Virus record (IMG/VR): IMGVR_UViG_3300020045_006040
Coordinates: 1 to 29,877 of that record
Source of the DNA: a virus
Lineage: Duplodnaviria > Caudoviricetes
Length of the DNA: 29,877 nt
Reading direction: 5' to 3' (one strand)
Shown in pieces: positions 6,705-29,877 of the stretch. The number at the start of each line of letters is the position of its first letter. Positions within the stretch are counted from its first letter, which is position 1. Under the pieces are notes generated by a model that was not told the DNA's origin, searched no databases, and was given only the letters and a program-made list of their open reading frames with translations. A program made the position numbers and the translations under genes.

Positions 6705-7214
6705 ATGGCTTGTGATTTAACAGCAGGACGTTTAAAAGCGTGTAAGCAATCTTTAGGAGGTGTTTCTACTTTGTATCTTTTTAATTTTGTCGAAGACCCG
6801 TTTACGGTAGCGGCAGGAATTGCGACAGCAATTAACCCTTTGCTTACTGCGGTTTTTGAATACGAATTAGAAGGTGACGGAAACAACATTTCTGAAAGTA
6901 TGCCGAGCGACAGGAACACGGGGACTTCGGTAAATACCCAAACGAGTACTTTTGTATTAAAAAAAGTTGATGCAACCACATCCGCACAAATGAACTTACT
7001 CGCTTATGGGTTTCCTATGGCAGTAGTAAAAGACAGAAACGGAATTTATCACGCAATCGGAATTGATGACGGTATTGATTTTACGGTGGTTCAGTCTACT
7101 GGAGGAGCGAAAACAGAATTGAATGGATATACTTTGACGGGTGTATCTACAACAGGGAGCTTGTCGCCTAAATTAGACACTGCAACAGCGGCAGCATTTT
7201 TGGCTTTGGTTTAG
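6705..7214 (+). CDS. Major tail (tube) protein, putative
   Basis: MACDLTAGR..CK.S.GG N-terminus typical of flavobacterial phage structural proteins; flanked by terminators. Confidence 0.6.
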   Translation: MACDLTAGRLKACKQSLGGVSTLYLFNFVEDPFTVAAGIATAINPLLTAVFEYELEGDGNNISESMPSDRNTGTSVNTQTSTFVLKKVDATTSAQMNLLAYGFPMAVVKDRNGIYHAIGIDDGIDFTVVQSTGGAKTELNGYTLTGVSTTGSLSPKLDTATAAAFLALV

Positions 7215-9228: not shown

Positions 9229-9720
9229 ATGGCTGAATTACTTTTTATAACACCCGAAGAAATGACCAGTTCCACTATTTTAAGCGGAAACACGGACACG
9301 GACAAATATATTTTTTGCATTGCAGACGCTCAAATATCGGTTATCGAACCGTTATTAGGATCGATACTATATAATAAAATAAAAGCAGATAAAGAAAACG
9401 ATACTTTATCCGGCTTGTATTTGGAATTATACACTGATTTAATTAAACCAATAACTAAAAATGAAGCTGTAGCACAGTACATTGAGATTGCGTCTTATAC
9501 GGTAGATAACGGGGGAGTTGTAAAACATACAGGCGATAAAATAGAAGTGGTTTCAAAAGAGGAATGCCAATATTTAGCTGGTAAATATCACAACTTGGCA
9601 CAAATGTATATCGGGCGTTTCAATAAGTGGATTTGTAAAAACTCATTGACCGAATATCAACAATGTCAGGATGAAGTAGATGCTCAAAAAATAAAAGTTT
9701 CTTTCGGATGGAAATTGTAA
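9229..9720 (+). CDS. Head-tail adaptor/connector, putative
   Basis: Follows portal; AQ...IEPLLG..LY motif. Confidence 0.55.
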   Translation: MAELLFITPEEMTSSTILSGNTDTDKYIFCIADAQISVIEPLLGSILYNKIKADKENDTLSGLYLELYTDLIKPITKNEAVAQYIEIASYTVDNGGVVKHTGDKIEVVSKEECQYLAGKYHNLAQMYIGRFNKWICKNSLTEYQQCQDEVDAQKIKVSFGWKL

Positions 9721-10283
9721 ACGGATATAATAGGAAATGTAAAGACAGCGTCGGAGGTGTTCGAAAAGTTTGGCTATGTAAATATGTGAAATATTCTCGA
9801 AGCCAAATTTTAACAGACGGCAATATATTAGTTTCTTTTCCTGATACTTTCATTTATTCGTTTCATAGCGTGGAGGCTTCGAATGCTTCTGAATCAATGG
9901 AGCAAACAGATGGGGGTAAGTTTTTTAATCAAAGTATTTCAGTAGCTTTTCAAGGAGCAGACCCTAAAGAGATTGAGTTGTTGCAAAATATAGATTTTAG
10001 AATTTTATATTTAGACAATAACGGAATTTATAAGATTTTTGGTTTACATAATGGAATGGAGGCGGGAACTATTGTATATGAAACCGGTTTTTCTAAATCT
10101 TCTTTAAACGGGTTTAGAATAAACTTTACAGGAAAAGAAAAAGAAGAAGCTATTTTTGTGGTAGATTTAGAAACAGTTGGGTTTATTAAAGAAGATACGG
10201 TAGTCGAACATTATTTACTATTGCAAAATTTAGACTTTTTTATATTGGAAAATAATGATAATTTAATTTTACAAAATGGCTAA
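9708..10283 (+). CDS. Tail-tube-like structural protein (paralog of 6705-7214)
   Basis: Shared CK.S.GGV, D.NGIY...G...G, TG..K..LNG motifs. Confidence 0.55.
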   Translation: MEIVNGYNRKCKDSVGGVRKVWLCKYVKYSRSQILTDGNILVSFPDTFIYSFHSVEASNASESMEQTDGGKFFNQSISVAFQGADPKEIELLQNIDFRILYLDNNGIYKIFGLHNGMEAGTIVYETGFSKSSLNGFRINFTGKEKEEAIFVVDLETVGFIKEDTVVEHYLLLQNLDFFILENNDNLILQNG

Positions 10284-10705: not shown

Positions 10706-12466
10706 ATGAAAAAAATACTTTTATTTTTACTTTTATCGATTGCGGGATACGGGCAAGTAAGTACAGGGCAAGAACAGGAATTTGACTACGGAATAAAAAA
10801 CAATTCTACGCAAACCATCACAAACCCAAACACGTTAGTAACTCAAGGTGCAGACGGTACTTATGGAAAAGCATCGGTAAACAACATCCCTATTTCAATT
10901 CCGGTTCAAGATAGTTTAAATAAAAAACTAAACTTACCTACTGGATTTCTACAAGGATTGCAATTATCGGTAAATGTAGACCCTACAAAGTTTAATATCG
11001 CAGCAGGTTATTACGTGGTTACTGATTTTTCAACCTTGACTCAACCAGTTGTTAAAATTATATCTTATGCGGGTGCAACGGGATTAAGCCCTGCTTACCT
11101 ATTAACGGCAAATAGTACTTATGTAGCGTTAGACATTAATGGAGCTTTGGTGTCGAGCGCATCTCCTTTTACAGACGCTCAAAGGCGTACATTAGCTTTA
11201 GTTGGTAATGTAGTACATCCAAATCACACCACAATAAATAATACCAATGAGATAAAAGCTCCGATAGTTGCAATTGGAAATCAACTGCACGATTTTATGA
11301 AGGCTATTGGCTTCTTGAATGAAAACGGCAATATTTACAGTGCGAACGGCGCAAATTTAATGTTGAATAAGTCGTCAGGAGATATTTTCGGAATGGGTAT
11401 AAATTCAGCAGATTATTTAAACCCACATAAATTAACAATACCCGCTCAAACCGCTATAACTTTTGCGTATAGGTTTCAAAATGGAGTTCAAACAGCAGAC
11501 ACACAAAACATTAATCCTAATATTTATGATGTTGGCGGAGTTTCAACAGCCGTGCCAGTTGGCAGTCGTTGGACAGTTCAAAGGATTAATTTATTTCAAT
11601 CAGGAATAGCACGCATACAACCGGGGCAAACTGTTTATACGTCATTTAATGACGCTGTCATGTCTTTACCTACTCAACCATTTGTAACTGAACAAAATAT
11701 TGCTGATAATGCTGTGTTTAGATGTTATTTAATAGTTCAACAAGGTACAACTAATTTAGCAAGTGCGGTTGCAGGTGGTACAGCTCAATTCGTGCCAGTT
11801 GATAAATTTGGAAATATTATTGGTAATGGTAGTGTTGCTTTGACTTATAGTAATATCGTGGCGGCTTTAGGATATACGCCGGCAAATGATGTTGATGTAG
11901 TTAAATTAGCAGGAGATCAAACGCTTACAGGATTGAAAACATTAGACAACGGAGAGATTAAATTTAAAAGTTTAACAACAGGCACTTACAACAGTATATA
12001 TTTTTCAGATGATGAATTTTCAACTAAAATATATGCAGATGCTACCCCGTCATTTTCTGTAAAAGCAGGTAATTTAAATTTATTGAATAGTGCGAAAACT
12101 TTTTTTACAACTTTTCAGAACCCTGATTTAATAGGAAACGTTACGATTAATACTCCTACGGAAAGCGGAAAACTGGCATTGACAAAATTAATCGTCCGTA
12201 AAATATCAACAAATACAACACTTGCAAATACCGATAACGGGACTATAATATTATTAACCGCATCGTGTACGGTAACTTTGCCTAATGGCCTAATGAGTGG
12301 TTTTAATTGTTCTTTTTCTACTCAAACAGGCGTCACAATGACATACGCATTAGGAGGTTCAGTAGTTTTAATAAATAATACAGGGACAACAATGGCAGAA
12401 AAATTAAGCCATACAATAGTAAATACAGGAGTTTCTAACGAATATTTAACAGCAGGTTCATTATGA
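10706..12466 (+). CDS. Tail fibre-like protein with signal-peptide-like N-terminus
   Basis: Thr/Asn/Gly-rich; ALGYTPAND and GDQTLTGLKT fibre motifs; MKKILLFLLLSIAGYG-Q. Confidence 0.6.
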   Translation: MKKILLFLLLSIAGYGQVSTGQEQEFDYGIKNNSTQTITNPNTLVTQGADGTYGKASVNNIPISIPVQDSLNKKLNLPTGFLQGLQLSVNVDPTKFNIAAGYYVVTDFSTLTQPVVKIISYAGATGLSPAYLLTANSTYVALDINGALVSSASPFTDAQRRTLALVGNVVHPNHTTINNTNEIKAPIVAIGNQLHDFMKAIGFLNENGNIYSANGANLMLNKSSGDIFGMGINSADYLNPHKLTIPAQTAITFAYRFQNGVQTADTQNINPNIYDVGGVSTAVPVGSRWTVQRINLFQSGIARIQPGQTVYTSFNDAVMSLPTQPFVTEQNIADNAVFRCYLIVQQGTTNLASAVAGGTAQFVPVDKFGNIIGNGSVALTYSNIVAALGYTPANDVDVVKLAGDQTLTGLKTLDNGEIKFKSLTTGTYNSIYFSDDEFSTKIYADATPSFSVKAGNLNLLNSAKTFFTTFQNPDLIGNVTINTPTESGKLALTKLIVRKISTNTTLANTDNGTIILLTASCTVTLPNGLMSGFNCSFSTQTGVTMTYALGGSVVLINNTGTTMAEKLSHTIVNTGVSNEYLTAGSL

Positions 12467-13188
12467 GAAAGTATATAATTTTATTACTGCTTTGTGGTTT
12501 TATTGGAAACGCACAATATAATTTATTTGCAAGACAAAATTTTGCAAAAAAAACAAGTATATCTACATTATGGGATGGGTTAGTTTCATTATATAAATTA
12601 GATGAGATAACAGGCACTTTAGCGAATGATAGTTATGGAGCTGCTCACCTAACAAACACAGGAATAACAATAAATCAAACGGGTAAGTTAGGAACTTCAT
12701 ACGCCTCAACATCTGCGGGTCAAAATCTAAATGCGACAGGAGTTGCGGCTATTACAGGTAATTTTACAATGAACGTATGGTGTTATAGAATGGGCAATAC
12801 AACTGTAGATAACATATCTATATTCGAACAAGGAGATTACGGCGCCGGTTTTGGTATATGGCTAAAAAGCAATAACTACGTAGGGTGGTTTATAAATACA
12901 AATTATAATAACTACATTTTATCCAACCCCCTACCTTTGAATGACTGGGTTATGATAACCATAACGTATGACGGAACCTATGTGAAATTATATCAAAACG
13001 GCGCTTTGATGAATGCATGGGCTTTTTCAACAAATCCATTATCAGCAACTACTAGAAGGATGTTTAACAGGACATCAAACACAGATGCGTATATAGGTAG
13101 ATTAGATAACGCATCTGTATTTAATAGAGCATTGACGTTAAGCGAAATAGCTAGCCATTATAACGGGGGATCAGGCATAACTTTATAA
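12463..13188 (+). CDS. LamG/concanavalin A-like lectin domain protein with signal-peptide-like N-terminus
   Basis: GLVSLYKLDE, FT..VW, W..ITITYDG...KLY.NG, G.LD...VFNRAL...EI...YN. Confidence 0.8.
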   Translation: MRKYIILLLLCGFIGNAQYNLFARQNFAKKTSISTLWDGLVSLYKLDEITGTLANDSYGAAHLTNTGITINQTGKLGTSYASTSAGQNLNATGVAAITGNFTMNVWCYRMGNTTVDNISIFEQGDYGAGFGIWLKSNNYVGWFINTNYNNYILSNPLPLNDWVMITITYDGTYVKLYQNGALMNAWAFSTNPLSATTRRMFNRTSNTDAYIGRLDNASVFNRALTLSEIASHYNGGSGITL

Positions 13189-14969: not shown

Positions 14970-15373
14970 GACTACTAATTTCCACTATTTTAGCAATTAT
15001 TATTTTATCTTTTCTATTTGGATGCGGAACTAGGAAAACAGATACCCAACAATTAGAAAACATAGCAATCGAAAATAAATACGATACAGGCTCGAAAATA
15101 GTATTAGGCAATACTTTTACGTATAAGCCTTTTGACCCGTTGAAAGTTATGGTTATTGAAGGAAAAACGTATAGTAATGCGATTGTTAGTAATGATAAAT
15201 CTATTGTAAAAGAAGTATGGAAACGAGAAACTAAATATAAAACAATTACCATTGAAAAAACAAAAGCCACAATTCGAGAGAATCATGATTTTCTATACAT
15301 CGGTTTATTTTTAGTATTAGTATTTGGCGTTTTAGCTTGGTTTAAATTGCCTAGTTTTAGAAAGGGCATTTAG
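14966..15373 (+). CDS. Unimolecular spanin candidate
   Basis: Lipoprotein signal (LFGC) plus C-terminal TM helix, directly after endolysin. Confidence 0.65.
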   Translation: MRLLISTILAIIILSFLFGCGTRKTDTQQLENIAIENKYDTGSKIVLGNTFTYKPFDPLKVMVIEGKTYSNAIVSNDKSIVKEVWKRETKYKTITIEKTKATIRENHDFLYIGLFLVLVFGVLAWFKLPSFRKGI

Positions 15374-15536
15374 ATTTAACTTTTGGAATTAGACTATCAT
15401 ATTCCATTTTTATTTTTTCCGCTATTGCATCACGAATAAATTTACCAACATCAACGTTATACGACTTCATTTTTTGAAGTGTTTTTAATTGACTTTCTGA
15501 AATACGCACAACCTTTGTTTTAGTGTAAAATTTCAT
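15357..15536 (-). CDS. Ribbon-helix-helix-like DNA-binding protein (59 aa), not in ORF track
   Basis: MKFYTKTKVVRISESQLKTLQKMKSYNVDVGKFIRDAIAEKIKMEYDSLIPKVKSKCPF: strand-helix-helix pattern. Confidence 0.7.
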   Translation of the reverse strand: MKFYTKTKVVRISESQLKTLQKMKSYNVDVGKFIRDAIAEKIKMEYDSLIPKVKSKCPF

Positions 15537-15539
15537 AAT

Positions 15540-15578
15540 TGTAATACATTTGTAGCTGTTAGCGAGTAGTTATAAGGC
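15540..15578 (+). other. attI-like left boundary of the cassette array
   Basis: GTTATAAGGC at 15569 matches the cassette-1 right end but has no preceding hairpin; second GTTAG at 15558. Confidence 0.45.
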
Positions 15579-15581
15579 AGT

Positions 15582-16064
15582 TTACGAAAGACGTACATAA
15601 CGACCTTTAATGTCACAATTTTTAAGGATTTCAGCGTTTTCTTCGCCATAAGCAATTAACACACTTGGCGCACCTGCTGTCCCTCCTTTTTCTCCTGTAA
15701 CGTGGTAAAAACTCAATCTGCCTTTTATAAATAATATTGCGGTTGCTTTTTCCCAAACGCATCTAAAAAACATTTTCGTTTCAGTTCTAGCAAAAGTCAA
15801 AGCAATACAATTTCCGTGCATTGATGCTTTTTCTAAAAAATGTTCTGCATACTTTCCGTATGGTGGATTACACCAAACCCTACCTTCCCAATTTTGCATT
15901 AAGCCATTATCGTTTATATTGAAATGCTTTTTTGCCGTGTCCCAAGGTCTATTTATTGGAGAACACGGATCTAAATCAAACTCTCCTAGACTTTTAATAA
16001 TTTGCGGTGGCGTTAGCCATTCGTCTTTTCCTGTTGCTGTATTCCCTTCAAAAGTTACATCCAT
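15582..16064 (-). CDS. Cassette 1: phage DNA N6-adenine methyltransferase (Dam-like, PF05869 type)
   Basis: DEWLTP, FDLDPCS, VWCNPPY motifs. Confidence 0.85.
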   Translation of the reverse strand: MDVTFEGNTATGKDEWLTPPQIIKSLGEFDLDPCSPINRPWDTAKKHFNINDNGLMQNWEGRVWCNPPYGKYAEHFLEKASMHGNCIALTFARTETKMFFRCVWEKATAILFIKGRLSFYHVTGEKGGTAGAPSVLIAYGEENAEILKNCDIKGRYVRLS

Positions 16065-16088
16065 CGTATTTGGTGTTAAAAAACCGCC

Positions 16089-16218
16089 TTATAACAATTG
16101 CTATAAAACAGTTGGGTATTGTGATTAATTTAAACATTTGGACTATCCGAATGCTTGGGTCTTGGCTCGAAGTTTGGGGAATTTCTATCCCAACCGTCTT
16201 ATAGCAAAAACGTTAGCG
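16089..16218 (+). repeat. attC-like site 1 (long class)
   Basis: TAAC 16092...GTTA 16212; arms TTGCTATAAAACAGTTGGG / CCCAACCGTCTTATAGCAA. Confidence 0.8.
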
Positions 16219-16224
16219 GTCAGT

Positions 16225-16521
16225 TTAGTGAGAAGCATTGTAATAACCACTCCAAATCTTCTCTTTGCACTCAAATAAATTTGACAATTGCTTGCTTAAA
16301 TTATATTCACGCATTGGATTTCTACAAGTATCTATTTCTTTTTCTAAGTCTTTAATTCTTTGCTCAACCATTTGCTCAAACATTTCAGGAATATTATCTT
16401 GAATTTCTTTTATTATTTCATTTTGAAACTTTGCTAAATCTTCTAATTCTTTACGTTTTGGAATACCTAACATAAATTTAGTAGTTAGTTTTAATAATTT
16501 ATTTGTTACTTTTTTTGACAT
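16225..16521 (-). CDS. Cassette 2: hypothetical helical protein
   Basis: 98 aa ORF filling the cassette. Confidence 0.7.
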   Translation of the reverse strand: MSKKVTNKLLKLTTKFMLGIPKRKELEDLAKFQNEIIKEIQDNIPEMFEQMVEQRIKDLEKEIDTCRNPMREYNLSKQLSNLFECKEKIWSGYYNASH

Positions 16522-16546
16522 AATATTTGGTGTTATAAAACCGAAC

Positions 16547-16678
16547 CGCTAACAATGCATAACACTAATTACGGTTTCTGTCTTGAATTTATAGTTTAGT
16601 TTGTATCAGTGATACGGTTTTTGTATTTATAGTTTCGGCTTACTTAACCCGTAACTAGAGTTATGCTCAACGTTATGG
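16547..16678 (+). repeat. attC-like site 2 (long)
   Basis: TAAC 16550...GTTA 16672; arms GCATAACACTAATTACGG / CCGTAACTAGAGTTATGC. Confidence 0.8.
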
Positions 16679-16708
16679 TGCATTGCTCGATTATCATTCA
16701 TAAGAACT

Positions 16709-17242
16709 TTATTTCACGTATGAAGTAAATTCCGTTCCTCTATCACAAAACGAATTTACCATTGAGCAAACAAGTCCAAATGACATTCCTGAATGACCTT
16801 GATTTTCAATAAGCGGTTTTACTTTTTCAAGTTCTTCGCCTTTGTTTAATTGTTCAACTATTTCAAGGCAATTTCCTAATTCCATTCCTTGATATAAATC
16901 TCCTAATCTAATCGGAACACATTTTACCCATAATTCAAGATATTTTTCATCCAATATCTCTTTTCCTTTTTCAATCCATTGTTTTGTTAGTTCAGGAATT
17001 GCTTCTTCGTGCTTTCTTTTTTGTTCTTGGTATTCCTCGCTTCTTTTTCTTTCTGCTTCATCACATTCAGCTTTTGTTTTACCTGTAATTTTTACATAAG
17101 CAGAATCTAAATCATCAATATCGGAATATAATTTTTGTCCATTAAATATACCAAAAACCAATTCTTTATGGCTTTTCAATTCTTTTACCGCTGATTCGAT
17201 ATTTCCGAATCCAAATTCAATTTCTTTGTACACTTTTTTCAT
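16709..17242 (-). CDS. Cassette 3: hypothetical protein (177 aa, MKKVYKEIEF...)
   Basis: Start revised to ATG 17242; the ORF-track extension reads through site 3. Confidence 0.75.
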   Translation of the reverse strand: MKKVYKEIEFGFGNIESAVKELKSHKELVFGIFNGQKLYSDIDDLDSAYVKITGKTKAECDEAERKRSEEYQEQKRKHEEAIPELTKQWIEKGKEILDEKYLELWVKCVPIRLGDLYQGMELGNCLEIVEQLNKGEELEKVKPLIENQGHSGMSFGLVCSMVNSFCDRGTEFTSYVK

Positions 17243-17274
17243 AATAACATTTAGTTTTAGCAACCCACAACGCA

Positions 17275-17404
17275 CCATAACAGTCGTTTGTAGCAAGACT
17301 GCATTGTCTTGTGTTTGAGTGGTCGGGTTTAATTTATAAATTAGTTTTTGCTTGTATGATTTGTCTTGAATCAACGTCCTGCTACAAGCGACAGAGCGTT
17401 ATGC
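17275..17404 (+). repeat. attC-like site 3 (long)
   Basis: TAAC 17278...GTTA 17398; arms GTCGTTTGTAGCAAGAC / GTCCTGCTACAAGCGAC. Confidence 0.8.
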
Positions 17405-17410
17405 CTAATA

Positions 17411-17635
17411 CTACGATTCTGACTCGTAGGTATTTAAGCAATTTAAGTTATAATTTATTGGCAGGTTGTTTTTAGAATTATAAACTTTTTGCAATTGCTT
17501 TCTAACTCTTTCCTCTCCTGTTCCATCACAAGCTCCGCAACTTTTTCCGAAATAACCTCCAGTACCTTCGCAGTAATGACAATTTTGTAAATTTGGCTGG
17601 CTTTCTCCGTTTTTTATTCCTTTTTTCCTTCCCAT
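17411..17635 (-). CDS. Cassette 4: DnaJ-type zinc-finger small protein
   Basis: CHYCEGTG and CGACDGTG (CxxCxGxG x2). Confidence 0.7.
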   Translation of the reverse strand: MGRKKGIKNGESQPNLQNCHYCEGTGGYFGKSCGACDGTGEERVRKQLQKVYNSKNNLPINYNLNCLNTYESES

Positions 17636-17671
17636 ATTTTTTATTATTAATATTTACTTTTGCCGTACTAG

Positions 17672-17750
17672 GCATAACACTTGCTACAAGCTACCAGCCG
17701 AATATACGCAACCGCATAGGCTGGCATCTTGTAGCAAGAGAACGTTATAA
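17672..17750 (+). repeat. attC-like site 4 (short)
   Basis: TAAC 17675...GTTA 17744; arms CTTGCTACAAGCTACCAGCC / GGCTGGCATCTTGTAGCAAG. Confidence 0.8.
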
Positions 17751-17754
17751 ACAA

Positions 17755-18054
17755 TTAATCCAAAACAGAGCAATATTCTGGATGAGATAAATTATTTTCT
17801 AACCATTTTTTCACTTCTTCTGTAGTTCCTTCTTCTGATGAATATCCGTAAAATGATGCTCCTCTAAAAGTTCTTCCGTCACAATCACCCTCAAGTTCTT
17901 CTTCAATTTTTCTTTCTATATCTCCTGTGTAATCCTCTATTGAATTACATAAAACCATAGCTTTATTTAATCTTTCTGAGTAATCATAAGCCCAGTTTCC
18001 TCTTAAATCGTTTAATAACTGCCCTAAGCAAGTTTTTAATTCTTCTTGTGTCAT
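17755..18054 (-). CDS. Cassette 5: acidic hypothetical protein
   Basis: 99 aa ORF filling the cassette. Confidence 0.7.
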   Translation of the reverse strand: MTQEELKTCLGQLLNDLRGNWAYDYSERLNKAMVLCNSIEDYTGDIERKIEEELEGDCDGRTFRGASFYGYSSEEGTTEEVKKWLENNLSHPEYCSVLD

Positions 18055-18065
18055 AATTTAACTGT

Positions 18066-18196
18066 TTATAACATCGGTTTTGCTCTATTGCGGTTTAGTG
18101 CTTTACCGATATTCGGTTTGTGTTTGTTAATTTTGTTTTTTAATCTAAACTTTTGGCTTACTTTTCCGCAACAAAGCAAGCCGAGAAACGTTATAA
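18066..18196 (+). repeat. attC-like site 5 (long)
   Basis: TAAC 18069...GTTA 18190; arms TCGGTTTTGCTCTATTGCGG / CCGCAACAAAGCAAGCCGA. Confidence 0.8.
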
Positions 18197-18218
18197 GCTA
18201 GTTTGCCTAAACGACAAC

Positions 18219-18485
18219 TTATCGTTTTTTAAAGTTGTTTCTAGGTTTGTCAAAATATTTATTTCTAGGAATATCATTTATTTTTGGTTCAAACCATTCT
18301 TTATTAAAATTATGTATTTGAATTGGTTCGGGTTCAAACGCTTTATTTTGCATTTCTTCAATTTGTTTTTTATCATTAGCAATTACAATTTCAATTTGTT
18401 GCTTATGAATTTGTTGAATACTTTGCAATGCAAATGCGAGTCCAAGACTGTTACCACATCCTACTAAAACTATTTTTTGTCGCAT
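18219..18485 (-). CDS. Cassette 6: hypothetical protein
   Basis: 88 aa; N-terminus KIVLVGCGNSLG resembles a Rossmann beta-alpha fragment. Confidence 0.65.
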   Translation of the reverse strand: MRQKIVLVGCGNSLGLAFALQSIQQIHKQQIEIVIANDKKQIEEMQNKAFEPEPIQIHNFNKEWFEPKINDIPRNKYFDKPRNNFKKR

Positions 18486-18496
18486 AAAAAACCAGC

Positions 18497-18633
18497 TTAT
18501 AACAGTGGCTACATTTCAGCTTTCGCACTGTTGATTAATTTAAAAATTTGTTTGTACTTGTATTGTTTAGGCAATTCCGAAAGATGGTTTCTTTATCCCA
18601 TCAAGCCGAAACTGTAGCCACGAAACGTTATCA
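18497..18633 (+). repeat. attC-like site 6 (long)
   Basis: TAAC 18500...GTTA 18627; arms GTGGCTACATTTCAGCTT / AAGCCGAAACTGTAGCCAC. Confidence 0.8.
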
Positions 18634-18634
18634 C

Positions 18635-18784
18635 TCAGCTTGAGTGTAACTGCTTAAATTCGTGTGCGGGGGCGTAATACTCTCGACCACCGTCTAATCG
18701 TATCATAATTGCACGCCCATAATAATTATTAAACTCTTTTACAAAAGTTCCTACTTTTCCAGTTAAAACGTGAACATATTTCAT
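18635..18784 (-). CDS. Cassette 7 second gene: 49 aa beta-rich protein, not in ORF track
   Basis: MKYVHVLTGKVGTFVKEFNNYYGRAIMIRLDGGREYYAPAHEFKQLHSS; ATGA overlap with the upstream gene. Confidence 0.65.
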   Translation of the reverse strand: MKYVHVLTGKVGTFVKEFNNYYGRAIMIRLDGGREYYAPAHEFKQLHSS

Positions 18785-19041
18785 AATATTTTAATTTTTT
18801 CAATTTCTTCCTTTAATATTTTTTCTTCATCAATTAATATTTGTATTAATGCAGGATATAGTTTTTCACTAAATTCAATTCCTTTAGACTTCAATTCAAA
18901 TAACAATTCTCTTAAAGAATGATATTCATTTTGAACACAAAAAATAGCATTTTTTTTTGATTTTTCTAAACATAAATTAGAATTGTAATCTGACAACGCA
19001 AATTCTTGAACTAATCTATATGCTTTTTCTTTTAATATCAT
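18781..19041 (-). CDS. Cassette 7 first gene: hypothetical protein, paralog of cassette 9 gene
   Basis: NEY..LRE.LFEL...LI.EEK shared. Confidence 0.7.
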   Translation of the reverse strand: MILKEKAYRLVQEFALSDYNSNLCLEKSKKNAIFCVQNEYHSLRELLFELKSKGIEFSEKLYPALIQILIDEEKILKEEIEKIKIL

Positions 19042-19067
19042 AATATTTGCATTTTAAAAAGCCGAAG

Positions 19068-19197
19068 TGATAACATACGTTAACCGCTATTCAGGCTTTA
19101 GGTTTAATTTAATTGTCGTTTTGTGTCTGTAAGATTTGTGATTACTCGAAATTCAGTTCTTACTTTTCCTGAACATCGGTTAGCTTTTCCGTTAGTG
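19068..19197 (+). repeat. attC-like site 7 (long)
   Basis: TAAC 19071...GTTA 19191; arms GTTAACCGCTATTCAGG / CCTGAACATCGGTTAGC. Confidence 0.8.
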
Positions 19198-19203
19198 ACA
19201 AGA

Positions 19204-19452
19204 CTACGAGTTATATTCAAACCACATATAAACATCGTCGTAAAATGGTATTAAAAACTCACCTCGCCCACAATCTTCATCATAAATTTCACTCCAATTG
19301 TATTCGTGATTAAAGCTTTGTTCTTCTACATCTTGTTTTTTGAATTTATTAGGGTCAATATCTCCATATTCCACAACTCCAATCATTGCTACATAAGATA
19401 AATCTTCTCTCAAATAATCAAATGCTTCTGTAATTTTTTCTTGTATTGTCAT
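19204..19452 (-). CDS. Cassette 8: acidic hypothetical protein (82 aa, MTIQEKITEAF...)
   Basis: Start revised to ATG 19452. Confidence 0.7.
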   Translation of the reverse strand: MTIQEKITEAFDYLREDLSYVAMIGVVEYGDIDPNKFKKQDVEEQSFNHEYNWSEIYDEDCGRGEFLIPFYDDVYMWFEYNS

Positions 19453-19499
19453 TTCGTTTAGTTTTATAATTAATATTTGTTTTAAAATTGCCGTCCAGC

Positions 19500-19576
19500 T
19501 ACTAACAATCACTATACAGCAGTTGCCGAATCTACGCAACCGAATAGGCAACCGCAGTATAGTTTTAACGTTATGT
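19500..19576 (+). repeat. attC-like site 8 (short)
   Basis: TAAC 19503...GTTA 19570; arms ACTATACAGCAGTTGCC / GGCAACCGCAGTATAGT. Confidence 0.8.
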
Positions 19577-19583
19577 GAGATTG

Positions 19584-19877
19584 TTACGAGTAATCTTCAA
19601 AAGAAAATATATCTAAAAAATCAAGTATTCTTTTTTCCTCGTTTATCAAAGCATCCAGTCTAGCTAAATACACTCTCCCATTTTCAATTGTATGACAAGC
19701 TCTTAATTCAAAAAGCATTTCTCTCAACCAATAATATTCGTTTTTCACGTTAATTCTTGCACATTCTTTTGCGTTTTTAAACATTTTTTCTTGTTCAGAA
19801 AGAATATCATCACCTTCATAATCTACATAAGGAGAAAAGTCAAGTATTAATTTTTCTATTTTTTCTTTAACGTTCAT
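19584..19877 (-). CDS. Cassette 9: hypothetical protein (97 aa, MNVKEKIEKL...)
   Basis: Start revised to ATG 19877; paralog of 18781-19041. Confidence 0.7.
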   Translation of the reverse strand: MNVKEKIEKLILDFSPYVDYEGDDILSEQEKMFKNAKECARINVKNEYYWLREMLFELRACHTIENGRVYLARLDALINEEKRILDFLDIFSFEDYS

Positions 19878-19906
19878 AACAAATTCAGTTTTAAGAACCG
19901 CACTAC

Positions 19907-20038
19907 TGGTAACATATGCTACACAATAGCTGGGTTTCGGGTTAAATTTAAAGTTTGTTTTGCGCCTTTTTAATCTGTCATTATCCGAAGTCTGGGTGTG
20001 TGCTTTTCCCAGCCATCGTGTAGCATCCGCCGTTAGTG
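19907..20038 (+). repeat. attC-like site 9 (long)
   Basis: TAAC 19910...GTTA 20032; arms ATGCTACACAATAGCTGGG / CCCAGCCATCGTGTAGCAT. Confidence 0.8.
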
Positions 20039-20047
20039 GCAAGACTA

Positions 20048-20266
20048 CTAAACATCCGTATAATTAAGCCACCAGTTACGATGCCACATAATGCCACAAT
20101 TATTTTTTAAAGTAATCCAGAAATATCTAGTATTCCGTTGGTACATTCCAGAGCTTCCAGAATCCCAATAACCATTGTATCTGCATTCTCTAGGTATTGC
20201 CCATCTAATAAATGTCTTGCCTATTTTTAAATATTTTCTTTCAAATTCATCGACTACTATTTTCAT
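20048..20266 (-). CDS. Cassette 10: Trp-rich hypothetical protein
   Basis: 72 aa ORF filling the cassette. Confidence 0.7.
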   Translation of the reverse strand: MKIVVDEFERKYLKIGKTFIRWAIPRECRYNGYWDSGSSGMYQRNTRYFWITLKNNCGIMWHRNWWLNYTDV

Positions 20267-20313
20267 CTTGTTTTATTTTTTTTATTAATGTTTATCGCTT
20301 GTTGCCGTCCTGC

Positions 20314-20393
20314 CACTAACAGCGGTTACATTTCAGCAGCCGAAATCTCGTAGCTGGATAGGCTGCCGAAATTGTAGCCGCAGGACGTTATAA
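20314..20393 (+). repeat. attC-like site 10 (short)
   Basis: TAAC 20317...GTTA 20387; arms GCGGTTACATTTCAGCAGCC / GGCTGCCGAAATTGTAGCCGC. Confidence 0.8.
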
Positions 20394-20399
20394 CTCAGC

Positions 20400-20570
20400 T
20401 TATTTTTTATCCATTTCCTCAATTAATTCATCTTGCCATTCTAAAAGCTTATTTTTTTCTGAAATATTTACTTTTAGATCAAAAATTTCCTCTTCTTGCC
20501 GGATTACTTTTCTGGCAAGGATTATGCATAAAATCAGTAATAATGCTATTGATATTATAAGTGCTGCCAT
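20400..20570 (-). CDS. 56 aa membrane-anchored coiled-coil protein, not in ORF track
   Basis: MAALIISIALLLILCIILARKVIRQEEEIFDLK... Confidence 0.6.
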   Translation of the reverse strand: MAALIISIALLLILCIILARKVIRQEEEIFDLKVNISEKNKLLEWQDELIEEMDKK

Positions 20571-22128: not shown

Positions 22129-22151
22129 ATTGTTCGTTGTTTTTATTTCTA

Positions 22152-22181
22152 CAAATGTACACCTTTTTATTTAATTACAAA
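22152..22181 (-). promoter_or_regulatory. Leftward Bacteroidetes-type promoter
   Basis: TTTG-N18-TACATTTG on minus strand. Confidence 0.65.
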
Positions 22182-22225
22182 ATTAATTATGTTATATAGA
22201 TTTAATATAAATAACGTTTTTAATA

Positions 22226-22255
22226 TTGTTTATTCAATTAATAGTCATATATTTG
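22226..22255 (+). promoter_or_regulatory. Rightward Bacteroidetes-type promoter
   Basis: TTG-N19-TATATTTG. Confidence 0.65.
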
Positions 22256-22276
22256 CTGAACTAAAATATAGAAATT

Positions 22277-22513
22277 ATGAGCCTAGACACATACAACGAA
22301 CACAATCATATTAATCCAATTAATCAAAAGGAAAATGAACCATTAACAGAATTAGAACAACAACAAGACTGGAATCAAGATTTATTAAAACGTATCCAGT
22401 CGCAAAAATCGGATCTGATTAAGTTAAAAGAAATTGAAGAAAGTTTTAAAACTTTTGGTTTTTTGAGTTATGAAGAAAGTACAGAAAAAAATAACATTTT
22501 AAATAAATATTAA
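22277..22513 (+). CDS. Hypothetical protein
   Basis: First gene of the rightward operon. Confidence 0.7.
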   Translation: MSLDTYNEHNHINPINQKENEPLTELEQQQDWNQDLLKRIQSQKSDLIKLKEIEESFKTFGFLSYEESTEKNNILNKY

Positions 22514-22741: not shown

Positions 22742-23470
22742 ATGAAAAACGAGATTACAACAACAGAACAAGTTAGCGACAAAGTACTTATTGAGTACTT
22801 AGATGTTATGGGAATCGCTCCAAAATTAGACGAAAAAGAGAAATTACAATTTCTTAATATCTCAAAAACGTTTGGTTTAAATCCTTTTAAACGTGAAATA
22901 TTTTGTACGGTTTATGGAGAGGGTCAATATAAACAATTTGCCATTATTACAGGTTATGAGGTTTATATTAAAAGAGCTGAAAGATCAGGACAATTAGACG
23001 GATGGAATGCGACTACGTCCGGAACAGTTGAAAATGGAGATTTAAAAGCAACTGTTACTATATTCAGAAAAGACCGTCAACATCCATTTATTTGGGAAGT
23101 TTTTTATAATGAATGTGTGCAAAAAACTAAAGCCGGAGCGGTTACTAAATTTTGGGAAAAAGCAAACTTTATGACTAAAAAAGTAGGTATCTCACAGGCT
23201 TTTAGATTGTGTTTTTCTGACGAATTAGGAGGTATGCCATACACAAGTGACGAAATGCCACAACAAGAAATTACTCAAGATATTCCGCACGTTGAAATTG
23301 TCGAAAATGTACCTACAATGAATAATTCTCAACACAAAAAACTAATTGACACGGCAACCGTTGAAAGATTAGGCGAGGTTTTGAATATGATTGAAGAAGG
23401 AAAATTGAACGCTACAAGTGCGCATGTTTTGACGTTAGAGGAAAAATTAATTGAATTAAAAACAGTATAA
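22742..23470 (+). CDS. bet: Single-strand annealing recombinase (Bet/RecT family)
   Basis: FL......GLNPF.REI, I..G...Y...AERSGQLDG, M..KV...QA.R..F...LGG.YT.DEM. Confidence 0.8.
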   Translation: MKNEITTTEQVSDKVLIEYLDVMGIAPKLDEKEKLQFLNISKTFGLNPFKREIFCTVYGEGQYKQFAIITGYEVYIKRAERSGQLDGWNATTSGTVENGDLKATVTIFRKDRQHPFIWEVFYNECVQKTKAGAVTKFWEKANFMTKKVGISQAFRLCFSDELGGMPYTSDEMPQQEITQDIPHVEIVENVPTMNNSQHKKLIDTATVERLGEVLNMIEEGKLNATSAHVLTLEEKLIELKTV

Positions 23471-25212: not shown

Positions 25213-25419
25213 ATGACAAAACAACAAACTATCCGCAATCTAATACAATTATCAGGTTGCGGAACTATCAAAGAATTTGCATCACGTCACGAAATACCAT
25301 ACCAGCGAGTTAGTGAATGGCAAAGAGGAATTAGAAACATTTGTAACGAAAAATTACAAGAAATCGCAAACAAAGAAGGGTATAAATTAACAATTGAATT
25401 TAAACTTGAAAAGATATGA
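25213..25419 (+). CDS. Cro/XRE-like helix-turn-helix regulator
   Basis: TIKEFASRHEIPYQRVSEWQRG. Confidence 0.7.
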   Translation: MTKQQTIRNLIQLSGCGTIKEFASRHEIPYQRVSEWQRGIRNICNEKLQEIANKEGYKLTIEFKLEKI

Positions 25420-25946
25420 TTGAAATTTGGAAAAATATTGAAGGTTTTGAATATTATCAGGTTAGTAATTTTGGCAACGTTAAATCTTTAGAAAGAAATA
25501 TTATTCAAAAAAATGGTAAGAATTATAAAGTTACTGAAAAATTATTAAAACCAAGTATTAATAATTTTGGATATTATTTTGTTTGCTTGTACAAAAAAAC
25601 ACAATGCTCTAAAAGCAAAACAATTCATCAATTGGTATCAATTGCATTTTTAGAACATAAACCAAGTGGATACAATTTAGTTATAAATCATAAAGATTTT
25701 AATAAACTTAATAATCACGAAAGTAATTTAGAAATTGTTTCAGCTAGAGAAAATACAAATCGAAAACATATAAAAAGCACTTCAAAATACGTAGGCGTGT
25801 GTTTAGATAAAAAACTAAATAAGTGGTGTGCTAAAATAAGAGAAAATGGAACTCAAAAATATTTAGGATTATATATAAACGAAATTGATGCGCATAATGC
25901 TTATCAAAAAGCATTAAAAGAAATAACTAAAAATACAATATTATGA
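25416..25946 (+). CDS. NUMOD4-HNH-AP2 homing endonuclease
   Basis: EIWK.IEGFE.YQVSN.G.VKSL; INHKD.NKLNN..SNLE; SKY.GV...KW.A.I. Confidence 0.9.
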   Translation: MIEIWKNIEGFEYYQVSNFGNVKSLERNIIQKNGKNYKVTEKLLKPSINNFGYYFVCLYKKTQCSKSKTIHQLVSIAFLEHKPSGYNLVINHKDFNKLNNHESNLEIVSARENTNRKHIKSTSKYVGVCLDKKLNKWCAKIRENGTQKYLGLYINEIDAHNAYQKALKEITKNTIL

Positions 25947-27118: not shown

Positions 27119-27311
27119 ACACAAAAGCTTAATCGAGAGCATAATACAAACCATTATAGGTCTTGGAACATCGATATTAATACAGATTATTTTATACCCA
27201 ATGATGGGTATTCCTGTAACATTTTCGCAAAACTTAATTATTACTTTGGTATTCTTTTTAGTATCAATTGTAAGGGGTTATTTTGTGAGAAGAATATTTG
27301 AGAAATTATGA
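27105..27311 (+). CDS. Small two-TM phage membrane protein
   Basis: Q.K..SLIES...F..VSIVRGYFVRRIF motif. Confidence 0.7.
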   Translation: MKQTKHKSLIESIIQTIIGLGTSILIQIILYPMMGIPVTFSQNLIITLVFFLVSIVRGYFVRRIFEKL

Positions 27312-27817
27312 ATGATATATTAAAATTATTCGAAGCAAATGTTTTAGAAGGCGATGTAGTTTATACGCCTGATTATGTTTCTAAAAATATAATTGAATTT
27401 CTAAAACCTGCAGGCAAATGTTTAGATCCCTGTAAAGGTGATGGAGCGTTTTTAAAATTTATGCCAATTGATTCTGATTATTGTGAACTTCAGGAAAATA
27501 AAGATTTTTTGCATTACGAAAAAAAAGTAGATTGGATAATTGGAAACCCGCCTTATTCTATTTTTGAAGATTTTTTAAGACATTCATTTCAAATATCAGA
27601 TAATGTTTCTTTTTTAGTCCCTACAAATAAAGTATTTCAACGTCAATTAATTATGGATATGATTAATAATTATGGAGGAATAAAAAGCATTATTATTTAC
27701 GGAAGCGGAAATTTAATTGGTTTTCCATTTGGTTTTAGTGTTGGAAACTTTCATTTTGAAAAAGGATATAAAGGAAAAACTGAGTTAATAATAGGAATGA
27801 AAAATATATTTAATTAG
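27308..27817 (+). CDS. DNA amino (N6-adenine) methyltransferase
   Basis: D.VYTP, LDPCKGDGAF, IIGNPPYS. Confidence 0.8.
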   Translation: MNDILKLFEANVLEGDVVYTPDYVSKNIIEFLKPAGKCLDPCKGDGAFLKFMPIDSDYCELQENKDFLHYEKKVDWIIGNPPYSIFEDFLRHSFQISDNVSFLVPTNKVFQRQLIMDMINNYGGIKSIIIYGSGNLIGFPFGFSVGNFHFEKGYKGKTELIIGMKNIFN

Positions 27818-28926: not shown

Positions 28927-29877
28927 TGGAAAAGCATTATTTAAAAAAGTTAGCTGAAAACGGCTTTTCGGTTATCCCTTGTGCAGAAAATAAAGCACCT
29001 ATTGGGGCTTGGAAAAACGCACAAACAACAGCAAGAACCCCAGAGGAAATTGAACAATTAACCAGCCCTAAATTTGGACTTGTGACTGGATATAATAACC
29101 TCGAGGTTATAGATATCGACTGCAAAACTTTGTCAACTTTAAAAGAACAAAAAGAATTTTGGGATGAGTATTTAGGATTTTTAACTGATAATATTGATGA
29201 CTTTGAAAAGAAATTTGTAATTAAAAAAACCTTAAACAAAGGCTATCATATTCTTTATCGATGCAAAACGTTAAAAGGAAATACTAAGATAGCCAAACTT
29301 AAAGGCAACCCAGAAGCATTAATAGAAAGCCGTGGTATTGGAGGAATGGTTATCGCTTATGATGACACTTTGTCAAAAATAAATTATCACGAAATCAAAG
29401 AAATTTCAGAAGAAGACAGAGAAATTTTATGGAGTTGCTCAAGAACTTACAACTATGTAAATGAATTACCTATTGAGCCAGTAAAGAAAAAACAAGAATA
29501 CCAAGAAAATGAAATAGCGTGCTGGGATGACTTTAATCAAAAAACTGATATTTTTGAAATTATAGGTAGTGATTTTTCAATAGTTGCAAACCATAATAAA
29601 AAGTACGTAATAAAAAGACACGGTTCAGAAAGCCCGCATTCTGGTTATGTTTACAAAGAAGATGGATTAATGTATCTTTTTTCAACTGGAACAATTTATC
29701 CACACGAAAAACAAATAAGCCCTTTTATTGCTTATTGTTGGAAAAATCATAATGGCAATTTATCTGACGGGGCTAAAGATTTATATGCAAAAGGCTTTGG
29801 ATCTCGTTTAAAAAAGATTGTAAATGAGATTAAGCCAAAAATATCAATGCAATCAAATGAAGAAAAACCAAATATAA
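28926..29877 (+). CDS. Bifunctional primase/polymerase (Prim-Pol) domain replication protein, 3'-truncated; not in ORF track
   Basis: MEKHYLKKLAENGFSVIP...K.P...W...GLVTG...LEVIDID...T.NKGYHILY...IESRG.GG; open to window end. Confidence 0.85.
   Translation, partial: MEKHYLKKLAENGFSVIPCAENKAPIGAWKNAQTTARTPEEIEQLTSPKFGLVTGYNNLEVIDIDCKTLSTLKEQKEFWDEYLGFLTDNIDDFEKKFVIKKTLNKGYHILYRCKTLKGNTKIAKLKGNPEALIESRGIGGMVIAYDDTLSKINYHEIKEISEEDREILWSCSRTYNYVNELPIEPVKKKQEYQENEIACWDDFNQKTDIFEIIGSDFSIVANHNKKYVIKRHGSESPHSGYVYKEDGLMYLFSTGTIYPHEKQISPFIAYCWKNHNGNLSDGAKDLYAKGFGSRLKKIVNEIKPKISMQSNEEKPNI

Follow-up and report, generated by a model that had tools for sequence, protein, structure and literature searches.

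Organization of the cassette array

The window analysed here, positions 1 to 29,877 of IMG/VR virus record IMGVR_UViG_3300020045_006040 (Duplodnaviria; Caudoviricetes), is the whole of that record, a linear viral contig of 29,877 bases whose completeness is estimated at about 90%. Between positions 15569 and 20393 it carries ten hairpins of 71-131 nt, each bounded by TAACA...CGTTA on the plus strand, which alternate with minus-strand open reading frames (ORFs), eleven of them in ten units, one per unit and two in unit 7. A preliminary description, made from the sequence alone, had taken this region for an integron-like cassette array with ten attC-like sites and no integrase in view. Both the alternation and the lack of an integrase in this record are borne out. 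A stem detector written for this analysis found 10 plus-strand sites in 15569-20393, as against a mean of 0.01 and a maximum of 1 in dinucleotide shuffles (n=200), and only 1 site in the rest of the window; a PF00589 search of the record yielded no tyrosine recombinase. The detector gave no score to two canonical attC sites of a class 1 integron and is therefore specific to the type of site described here. The one outlying hairpin (13065-13140, score 18) lies without a partner inside a gene (12463-13188) and is probably due to chance. The cassettes are listed below with their length, ORF, right-hand site and the distance over which their two ends can pair.

15570..16212: cassette 1, 643 bp; ORF 15582-16064 (-); site 1, 16092-16215; ends pair over 10 nt
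15582-16064 (-): gene of cassette 1, Dam-family methyltransferase (PF05869 above cut-off)
16213..16672: cassette 2, 460 bp; ORF 16225-16521 (-); site 2, 16550-16675; ends pair over 9 nt
16673..17398: cassette 3, 726 bp; ORF 16709-17242 (-); site 3, 17278-17401; ends pair over 10 nt
17399..17744: cassette 4, 346 bp; ORF 17411-17635 (-); site 4, 17675-17747 (73 nt); ends pair over 10 nt
17745..18190: cassette 5, 446 bp; ORF 17755-18054 (-); site 5, 18069-18193; ends pair over 10 nt
18191..18627: cassette 6, 437 bp; ORF 18219-18485 (-); site 6, 18500-18630; ends pair over 10 nt
18628..19191: cassette 7, 564 bp; ORFs 18635-18784 and 18781-19041 (-); site 7, 19071-19194; ends pair over 9 nt
19192..19570: cassette 8, 379 bp; ORF 19204-19452 (-); site 8, 19503-19573 (71 nt); ends pair over 6 nt only
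19571..20032: cassette 9, 462 bp; ORF 19584-19877 (-); site 9, 19910-20035; ends pair in a 4-nt run only
20033..20387: cassette 10, 355 bp; ORF 20048-20266 (-); site 10, 20317-20390 (74 nt); ends pair over 10 nt

The ORF stop lies 11-37 nt from the core in nine units. In 8 of the 10, the bases to the left of TAAC are the reverse complement of those after the previous GTT over 9-10 nt, and the bases flanking TAAC pair with their own site over 4-7 nt only. As far as the sequence can tell, this complementarity of ends is the trace expected of a circle opened at G^TT and then inserted. Cassette 9, with its mismatched ends, is likely a hybrid; the hairpin body of its site is 98% like that of five other loci, some of them with other genes. 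An eleventh module, at 20387-20570, starts as cassettes typically do and has an ORF of 56 aa, without a hairpin upstream; it is likely a decayed distal cassette.

Searches of the cassettes with Pfam and PHROGs gave a name above a cut-off to cassette 1 alone, and an exact-repeat search returned mostly chance families. By BLAST of the ten cassettes against the loci collected by then, relatives were found of cassettes 2 and 10 only; those of cassette 2 (68%, with the same start box) stand in two arrays that adjoin a phage recombinase (L184 and L185).

Turnover of cassettes among related phages

The array region has matches in 52 of 50,697 phage records, and as 48 of the 52 are Flavobacterium phages, the host of the window phage is likely a flavobacterium. 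Among the matches are ten cultured Baltic Flavobacterium phages from isolates, plus mumin6-2, with the gene layout of mumin6-1. The ten carry 10-15 sites each and 34 cassette types between them, with 7 different first cassettes and changes of order; their sharing of cassettes rises with distance from the entry end of the array (rho 0.82), as a newest-first polarity would produce. In a block analysis of these genomes, 19 of 31 distinct junctions lay within 12 nt of a core, a zone that holds 5.5% of the bases (binomial P 7e-17, a value which treats related phages as independent, which they are not). Phages mumin6-1 and mumin6-3 differ by a single 506-bp unit at AACGTTA.

Five of ten isolates of Polaribacter phage Freya were compared with Freya_10 as reference. 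Precisely the first cassette, of 307 bp, is missing from Freya_9, and 3198 bp between the entry and a later core are missing from Freya_5; in both, only AAC is shared between the deletion ends and the junction lies inside the record. Freya_6 has a different unit of about 470 bp at the entry, which occurs only in Freya_6 and Freya_7 among the 50,697 phage records. This unit (L244:465-933) contains a 71-aa ORF within a 295-nt site loop. Contigs from 4 of 16 sequencing runs were also compared at a likeness of 85. In one run (X2), cassette 1 is present as 15569-16215, with 4 differences, inside a public contig of 1,798 nt; in another (X3), cassette 1 starts at 15569. Loose contig ends occur at 17401, 17747 and 20390. 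No run contained half of the array region, and no RNA run was listed among the holders. Exchange exactly at G^TT, as had been proposed for this array, is thus supported by the clustering of junctions on cores, the Freya deletions and the exact-ended copy of cassette 1, and the units almost certainly move at this point.

Pairs of sites with the same hairpin indicate what moves. Eighteen such pairs keep the gene on the left and change that on the right, and 0 do the reverse; the moving unit is therefore a gene together with its right-hand hairpin. The opposite unit, a hairpin with the gene on its right (top-strand crossover), was considered and rejected, 0 pairs of this kind having been found. 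A further 33 pairs, in 20 hairpin families, differ on both sides, and sequence identity rises sharply at TAAC. To judge from these alignments, the same hairpin is also used again with other genes. Homologues of the cassette 3 gene are in cassettes in 6 of 18 viral loci, with other arms and hairpins, and those of the cassette 1 gene in 2 of 18 only; because homologues stand mostly outside cassettes, the cargo seems to have been recruited from ordinary genes. Several methyltransferases are found among the cargo of relatives. At one locus (L195:1-3519), a cassette 3 gene homologue is flanked on both sides by scored sites of opposite orientations.

A fixed entry site next to a small gene

The left boundary of the array, at 15569, is without a hairpin and lies 33 nt upstream of a gene for a protein of 59 residues. 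Three features adjoin here:

15553..15579 (+): entry (attI-like) site, with an inverted arm at 15553-15563, a 5-nt spacer and the G^TT core at 15569
15540..15548 (no strand assigned): near-palindrome TGTAATACA, a candidate operator of the 59-aa protein
15357..15536 (-): 59-aa gene (phrog_25647, E 1e-31), the last gene of the leftward block

The small gene was surveyed at 82 loci, 80 of them viral (the best 80 of 104) and 2 of 3 from genomes. Among loci with the gene and at least 2 kb of upstream DNA, 61 of 68 have a site, and none has one on the other side of the gene. The first cassette begins at a fixed position in 60 of the 71 site-bearing loci, with 36 different starts, and TGTAATAC occurs in 58 of the 60 entry sites. 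From this comparison, the boundary at 15569 is read as a fixed attI-type entry that receives new cassettes. The entry-site pattern matched in 8 of 151 host genomes, no more than a reversed control.

The 59-aa protein was modelled as two helices (predicted local distance difference test score, pLDDT, 81.5). Fold matches were weak and mostly to ribbon-helix-helix (RHH) proteins, none with E<=1e-3, and neither a PDB sequence search nor the Atlas gave it a name; these matches would suggest an RHH-like protein.

Anatomy of the sites and the strand that folds

Site anatomy was derived from 236 unique sites of the collected loci, chosen for a run of at least 9, so that outer-arm positions 1-9 pair by construction; pairing extends to position 15. 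Both arms keep G-Y-T-W-N6-A, with six middle bases that vary freely. At the cassette start, 97% of the sites have A at position 11, which in 180/236 takes part in a T·G pair of the minus (bottom) strand. The inner arm begins 4 nt after AAC, with T at position 3 and A at position 11 in 97%, and shows the T·G pair at position 11 in 176/236; T3 and A11 are present in all ten window sites. The spacer opposite the 4-nt one measures 6-8 nt in 228 of 236 sites, and C precedes GTT in 98%. Positions 3, 4 and 5 of the L arm form ungapped Watson-Crick pairs in 234, 236 and 230 of the 236 sites checked, so that the extrahelical base of attC sites is not present in this arm. The claim that structure rather than sequence is conserved therefore holds for the pairing and not for the sequence, which is constrained in both arms. 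The sites are not canonical attC sites: the extrahelical base is missing and the genes are reversed.

This reversal is general in the phage loci, of which 123 gave 221 genes on the bottom strand, 8 on the top strand and 5 cassettes without an ORF, as against 24 top and 0 bottom in bacterial loci. Bacterial sites are like phage sites in length, with A11 in 31/31 starts and 27/31 inner arms. The bottom strand folds lower in 10/10 circular forms from the window and in 220/236 sites from phage loci, and also in 26/31 bacterial sites, where it is the non-coding strand.

Folding on the mRNA strand, as seen in phages, would also be expected if the hairpins were RNA elements (processing, termination or translation control) and the genes were swapped by RecT-type homologous recombination. 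A gene fit for that role is present, and some junctions do fall at TAAC or within sites and genes:

22742-23470 (+): RecT-like gene

However, the strand bias is identical in bacteria on the non-coding strand and is therefore not a property of mRNA. Moreover, pairing of the outer arm requires a whole unit, and the deletions share just a 3-nt overlap. Terminator-like sites number 3, against 2.9 by chance, and there is no Rfam match up to E 1; we hold this explanation to be highly improbable. A sigma-70 scan was likewise at chance level. Within the sites, the Bacteroidota -7 promoter box is rarer than expected on the strand of the genes (3 vs 8.9) and slightly commoner than expected on the other (33 vs 22.6), which does not establish a promoter for each cassette.

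A candidate recombinase in hosts and phages

Of 151 Flavobacteriales genomes, none had a hit above the cut-off of the IntI model TIGR02249, and 84 had a match at E 1e-50 or better to a related tyrosine recombinase (PF00589 and PF13495). Twenty host loci of this recombinase were sampled, with long contigs favoured, 18 of them with enough DNA for analysis. Around the 20 genes, 30 sites lay downstream on the same strand, 2 upstream and 3 on the opposite strand, and in 9 of 18 loci a cassette start followed within 200 nt of the recombinase stop, one mis-framed locus being scored as a miss. The host entry at locus L168 is close in sequence to the phage entry. Some phages encode a 266-aa member of the family (12 loci found), and all 10 phage loci with upstream DNA have a GTT about 52 nt ahead of its start, with 8 different first cassettes among them. 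The cultured phages Leef_1 and Freya_10 have this same recombinase-entry layout; Ingeline_1 has the recombinase and the upstream GTT and no scored site. That the phage recombinase gene might itself be a cassette, with a hairpin over its start, was considered and rejected (scores of 4.5 or less).

Where IntI1 has 112 residues and XerC/D 74-78, members of the family have 65-71. They retain the catalytic motifs and form a group separate from XerC/D in a quick tree (34 rows, long branches); by its position beside the arrays, the family is the candidate for the active enzyme. An entry next to an integrase gene is found only in relatives; in the window the neighbour is the RHH-like gene. The complete genomes of mumin6-1 and P12002L contain arrays and no PF00589 match, so that supply of the recombinase in trans is likely for such phages. 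Of the suggestion that a recombinase from outside the record is used, the outside supply is retained as likely, and the enzyme is probably not IntI.

CTX-phage-type elements and pdif modules exploit XerC/D, and host XerC/XerD might act in the same way on the folded sites described here, the neighbouring recombinase being incidental. The arms (T-T-A-N6-A) are reminiscent of Xer arms, no IntI insertion would be required, and both XerC and XerD are present in the single host checked. A simple tyrosine recombinase, arms of about 11 bp and a possible folded single-stranded substrate are further points of likeness. Dif-like elements, on the other hand, have a 6-bp centre between XerC and XerD arms that are conserved, whereas the arms here are symmetric and degenerate, with the six middle bases of both (positions 5-10) free to vary and 5 nt between the G/C ends of the arms at the entry. 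A dedicated recombinase gene, apart from XerC/D in the tree, stands at a fixed distance from the entry in 10/10 phage and 9/18 host loci, and no sites were found at the XerC and XerD loci. Use of XerC/XerD is highly improbable.

Some loci of the family have unusual arrangements. One phage (L091:3104-10183) has two arrays back to back (7 and 6 sites); the RHH-like gene stands at the end of one and a 266-aa recombinase at the end of the other. At the start of one contig (G001; L032:1-140), a recombinase gene fragment runs directly into a cassette start, as if the array had inserted into it or truncated it. On an Acinetobacter plasmid (NZ_CP104735.1; L192:2967-5117), a shortened recombinase gene of the same family (48% to L116) lies beside tet(X3); after its stop come an entry-like site, tet(X3) on the top strand, and the beginning of a hairpin site, with a flank that agrees with the entry at 11 of 15 positions. 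The layout of this region is that of host-type arrays, and tet(X3) looks, from this arrangement, like a former cassette of the host-type system.

Proposed mechanism

We propose that the window holds a row of ten cassettes behind a fixed entry. Sequence comparison shows the mobile unit, the point of crossover, the entry, the newest-first order, the anatomy of the sites and the presence of the recombinase gene next to such arrays in hosts and some phages; the following mechanism, drawn for the rest by analogy with IntI (PMC2727003), is as a whole considered probable. The minus (bottom) strand would fold when single-stranded during replication. Its two inverted arms of 11 nt, on either side of an unpaired spacer of 4 nt facing 6-8 nt, would be recognised by recombinase subunits, and the T·G pair at position 11 of the arms would select the strand in place of the extrahelical base. 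A single strand would be exchanged and the product resolved by replication; excision would yield a circle with a fully paired outer arm, and circles would enter the double-stranded site at 15569. The cutting enzyme would be a Bacteroidota tyrosine recombinase without the IntI insertion, likely supplied in trans. Cassette genes would be expressed together with the leftward early block, whose promoter the gene layout places near 22130-22280, the newest cassette being the farthest from it. The cargo, here a Dam methyltransferase, likely tunes escape from host restriction and host range.

Several observations weigh against this scheme. About 10% of the genome lies outside the record, which might have a recombinase of its own beyond its ends, and the RecT-like gene offers another route of recombination. 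The recombinase family is linked to the arrays by position, and 9 of the 18 bacterial loci have no entry at the recombinase. Inner position 2 is mismatched on the bottom strand in 112/236 sites, which does not suit a simple picture of the anatomy, and units 8 and 9 depart from circular-form pairing. No free cassette circle was seen in the contigs of the 4 of 16 runs. The absence of about 4.94 kb between cores in Freya_1 and the start of Freya_8 at a core are weaker cases than the other Freya differences, both being at record ends. Finally, 12 of the 31 junctions are off cores: five fall at TAAC, three within or next to a site, two inside genes, one at a distance of 13 nt, and one at a core that the detector missed. 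Other recombination therefore acts too. Homologous recombination probably adds such noise, in the form of off-core junctions and the hybrid unit 9.

Relation to integrons and wider significance

The array shares with integrons (class 1, Vibrio cholerae superintegron) the AAC/GTT cores, the G^TT crossover, the end pairing of the circular form, the unpaired central spacer, the variable terminal loop, the bottom-strand bias, and a double-stranded entry site with a 5-nt spacer at which the newest cassette stands. It differs in the lack of an extrahelical base in the L arm, in spacers of 4 versus 6-8 nt, in 11-nt arms with a conserved A11 and T·G wobble, and in a linked recombinase with 65-71 residues at the insertion region, where IntI1 has 112. 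Host arrays of the present type begin behind the recombinase stop codon. The cassette gene of an integron is usually on the top strand, directed towards its attC; phage genes here are reversed, and the window entry is flanked by the RHH-like gene instead of an integrase. Thus, the array works like an integron and yet departs from one in three defining respects, namely IntI insertion, extrahelical base and gene polarity. As far as the accessible text of PMC2727003 goes, an extrahelical base in the L'' arm is a criterion for attC, and its removal does not abolish recombination and relaxes strand choice.

Sites of this type have already been reported, under another heading, from Polaribacter phage P12002L. 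The consulted portion of Qi et al. 2023 (PMC9892861) lists 17 phage clusters of attC sites lacking integrases (CALINs), P12002L among them; it treats the sites as canonical attC and names no entry site, enzyme or turnover. P12002L has two clusters of the present site type, with reversed genes and methyltransferase cargo. The published attC1 (30008-30056, partner at 29237) is a true site of this type, and by the same account it failed to recombine with IntI1 while attC2 recombined. In our own reading of the sequence, attC2 would be the entry region read backwards, as it is located on the opposite strand, immediately ahead of where the first cassette starts, with a second occurrence at 37247. 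The opinion that no such system had been characterised in Bacteroidetes phages therefore needs correction as to the CALINs, and stands as to the entry site, the enzyme and turnover, which appear to be new relative to the accessible text of that paper.

The P12002L sites were flagged by integron tools (same text), and an ordinary CALIN, a piece of a host integron taken up by a phage and served by canonical IntI, would equally show AAC/GTT cores, C before GTT and a bottom-strand bias. In that case the absence of TIGR02249 hits above cut-off in all 151 Flavobacteriales, the L arm without a bulge, a phage cassette polarity opposite to that of host cassettes, and the failure of IntI1 on attC1 (PMC9892861, as accessible) would be hard to account for, and an origin of this kind is highly unlikely.

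No published description of the present variant was found in a search that left most subscription literature outside its reach. What was available of one preprint (10.1101/2022.02.28.482270) presents integrons as nearly absent from Bacteroidota, with one complete element named, in Salinibacter. For the phages themselves, the accessible text of Nilsson 2020 ties host range to methyltransferase differences and leaves integrase unmentioned (PMC7077304). In that of Bartlau 2021 (PMC8776804), the terms 'integron' and 'cassette' were not found, and the 'integrases' of cultured Freya and Leef are taken as signs of lysogeny. The present analysis would supply a mechanism for the variable early region and the methyltransferase sets of flavobacterial phages, and the Freya and Leef 'integrases' would no longer be read as lysogeny signs.

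Integrons are thought to be rare in phages, and the IntI insertion and extrahelical base are regarded as key features for recombining single strands and for choosing the strand. A widespread look-alike with neither would revise these views as well as that of rarity in Bacteroidota and phages. It is tempting to speculate, with less than even confidence, that a second lineage of integrons, so far unrecognised, is common to Bacteroidota and their phages. Such a lineage would recombine folded single strands without the IntI insertion; its phage pool would be inverted, the two pools mutually silent and served by one enzyme, and hairpins re-used through joins at TAAC. In that event, defence genes and other host cassettes would not be expressed from a phage array, nor phage cassettes in the host. 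How cassettes originate is an open question to which this re-use of hairpin bodies is relevant, and their joining at TAAC to unrelated ordinary phage genes would then expose the making of cassettes.

Other features of the window

Head, tail and lysis genes of the window lie on the plus strand, the leftward block runs from 22128 to 15357, and the plus strand is used again beyond it, for RecT-like, single-stranded DNA-binding (SSB), HNH, methyltransferase and primase genes. The HNH endonuclease gene lies at 25416-25946, and a second DNA methyltransferase, outside the array, at 27308-27817 (phrog_799). Two genes, at 6705-7214 and 9708-10283, both match phrog_19091 and likely encode paralogous tail-tube-like proteins.

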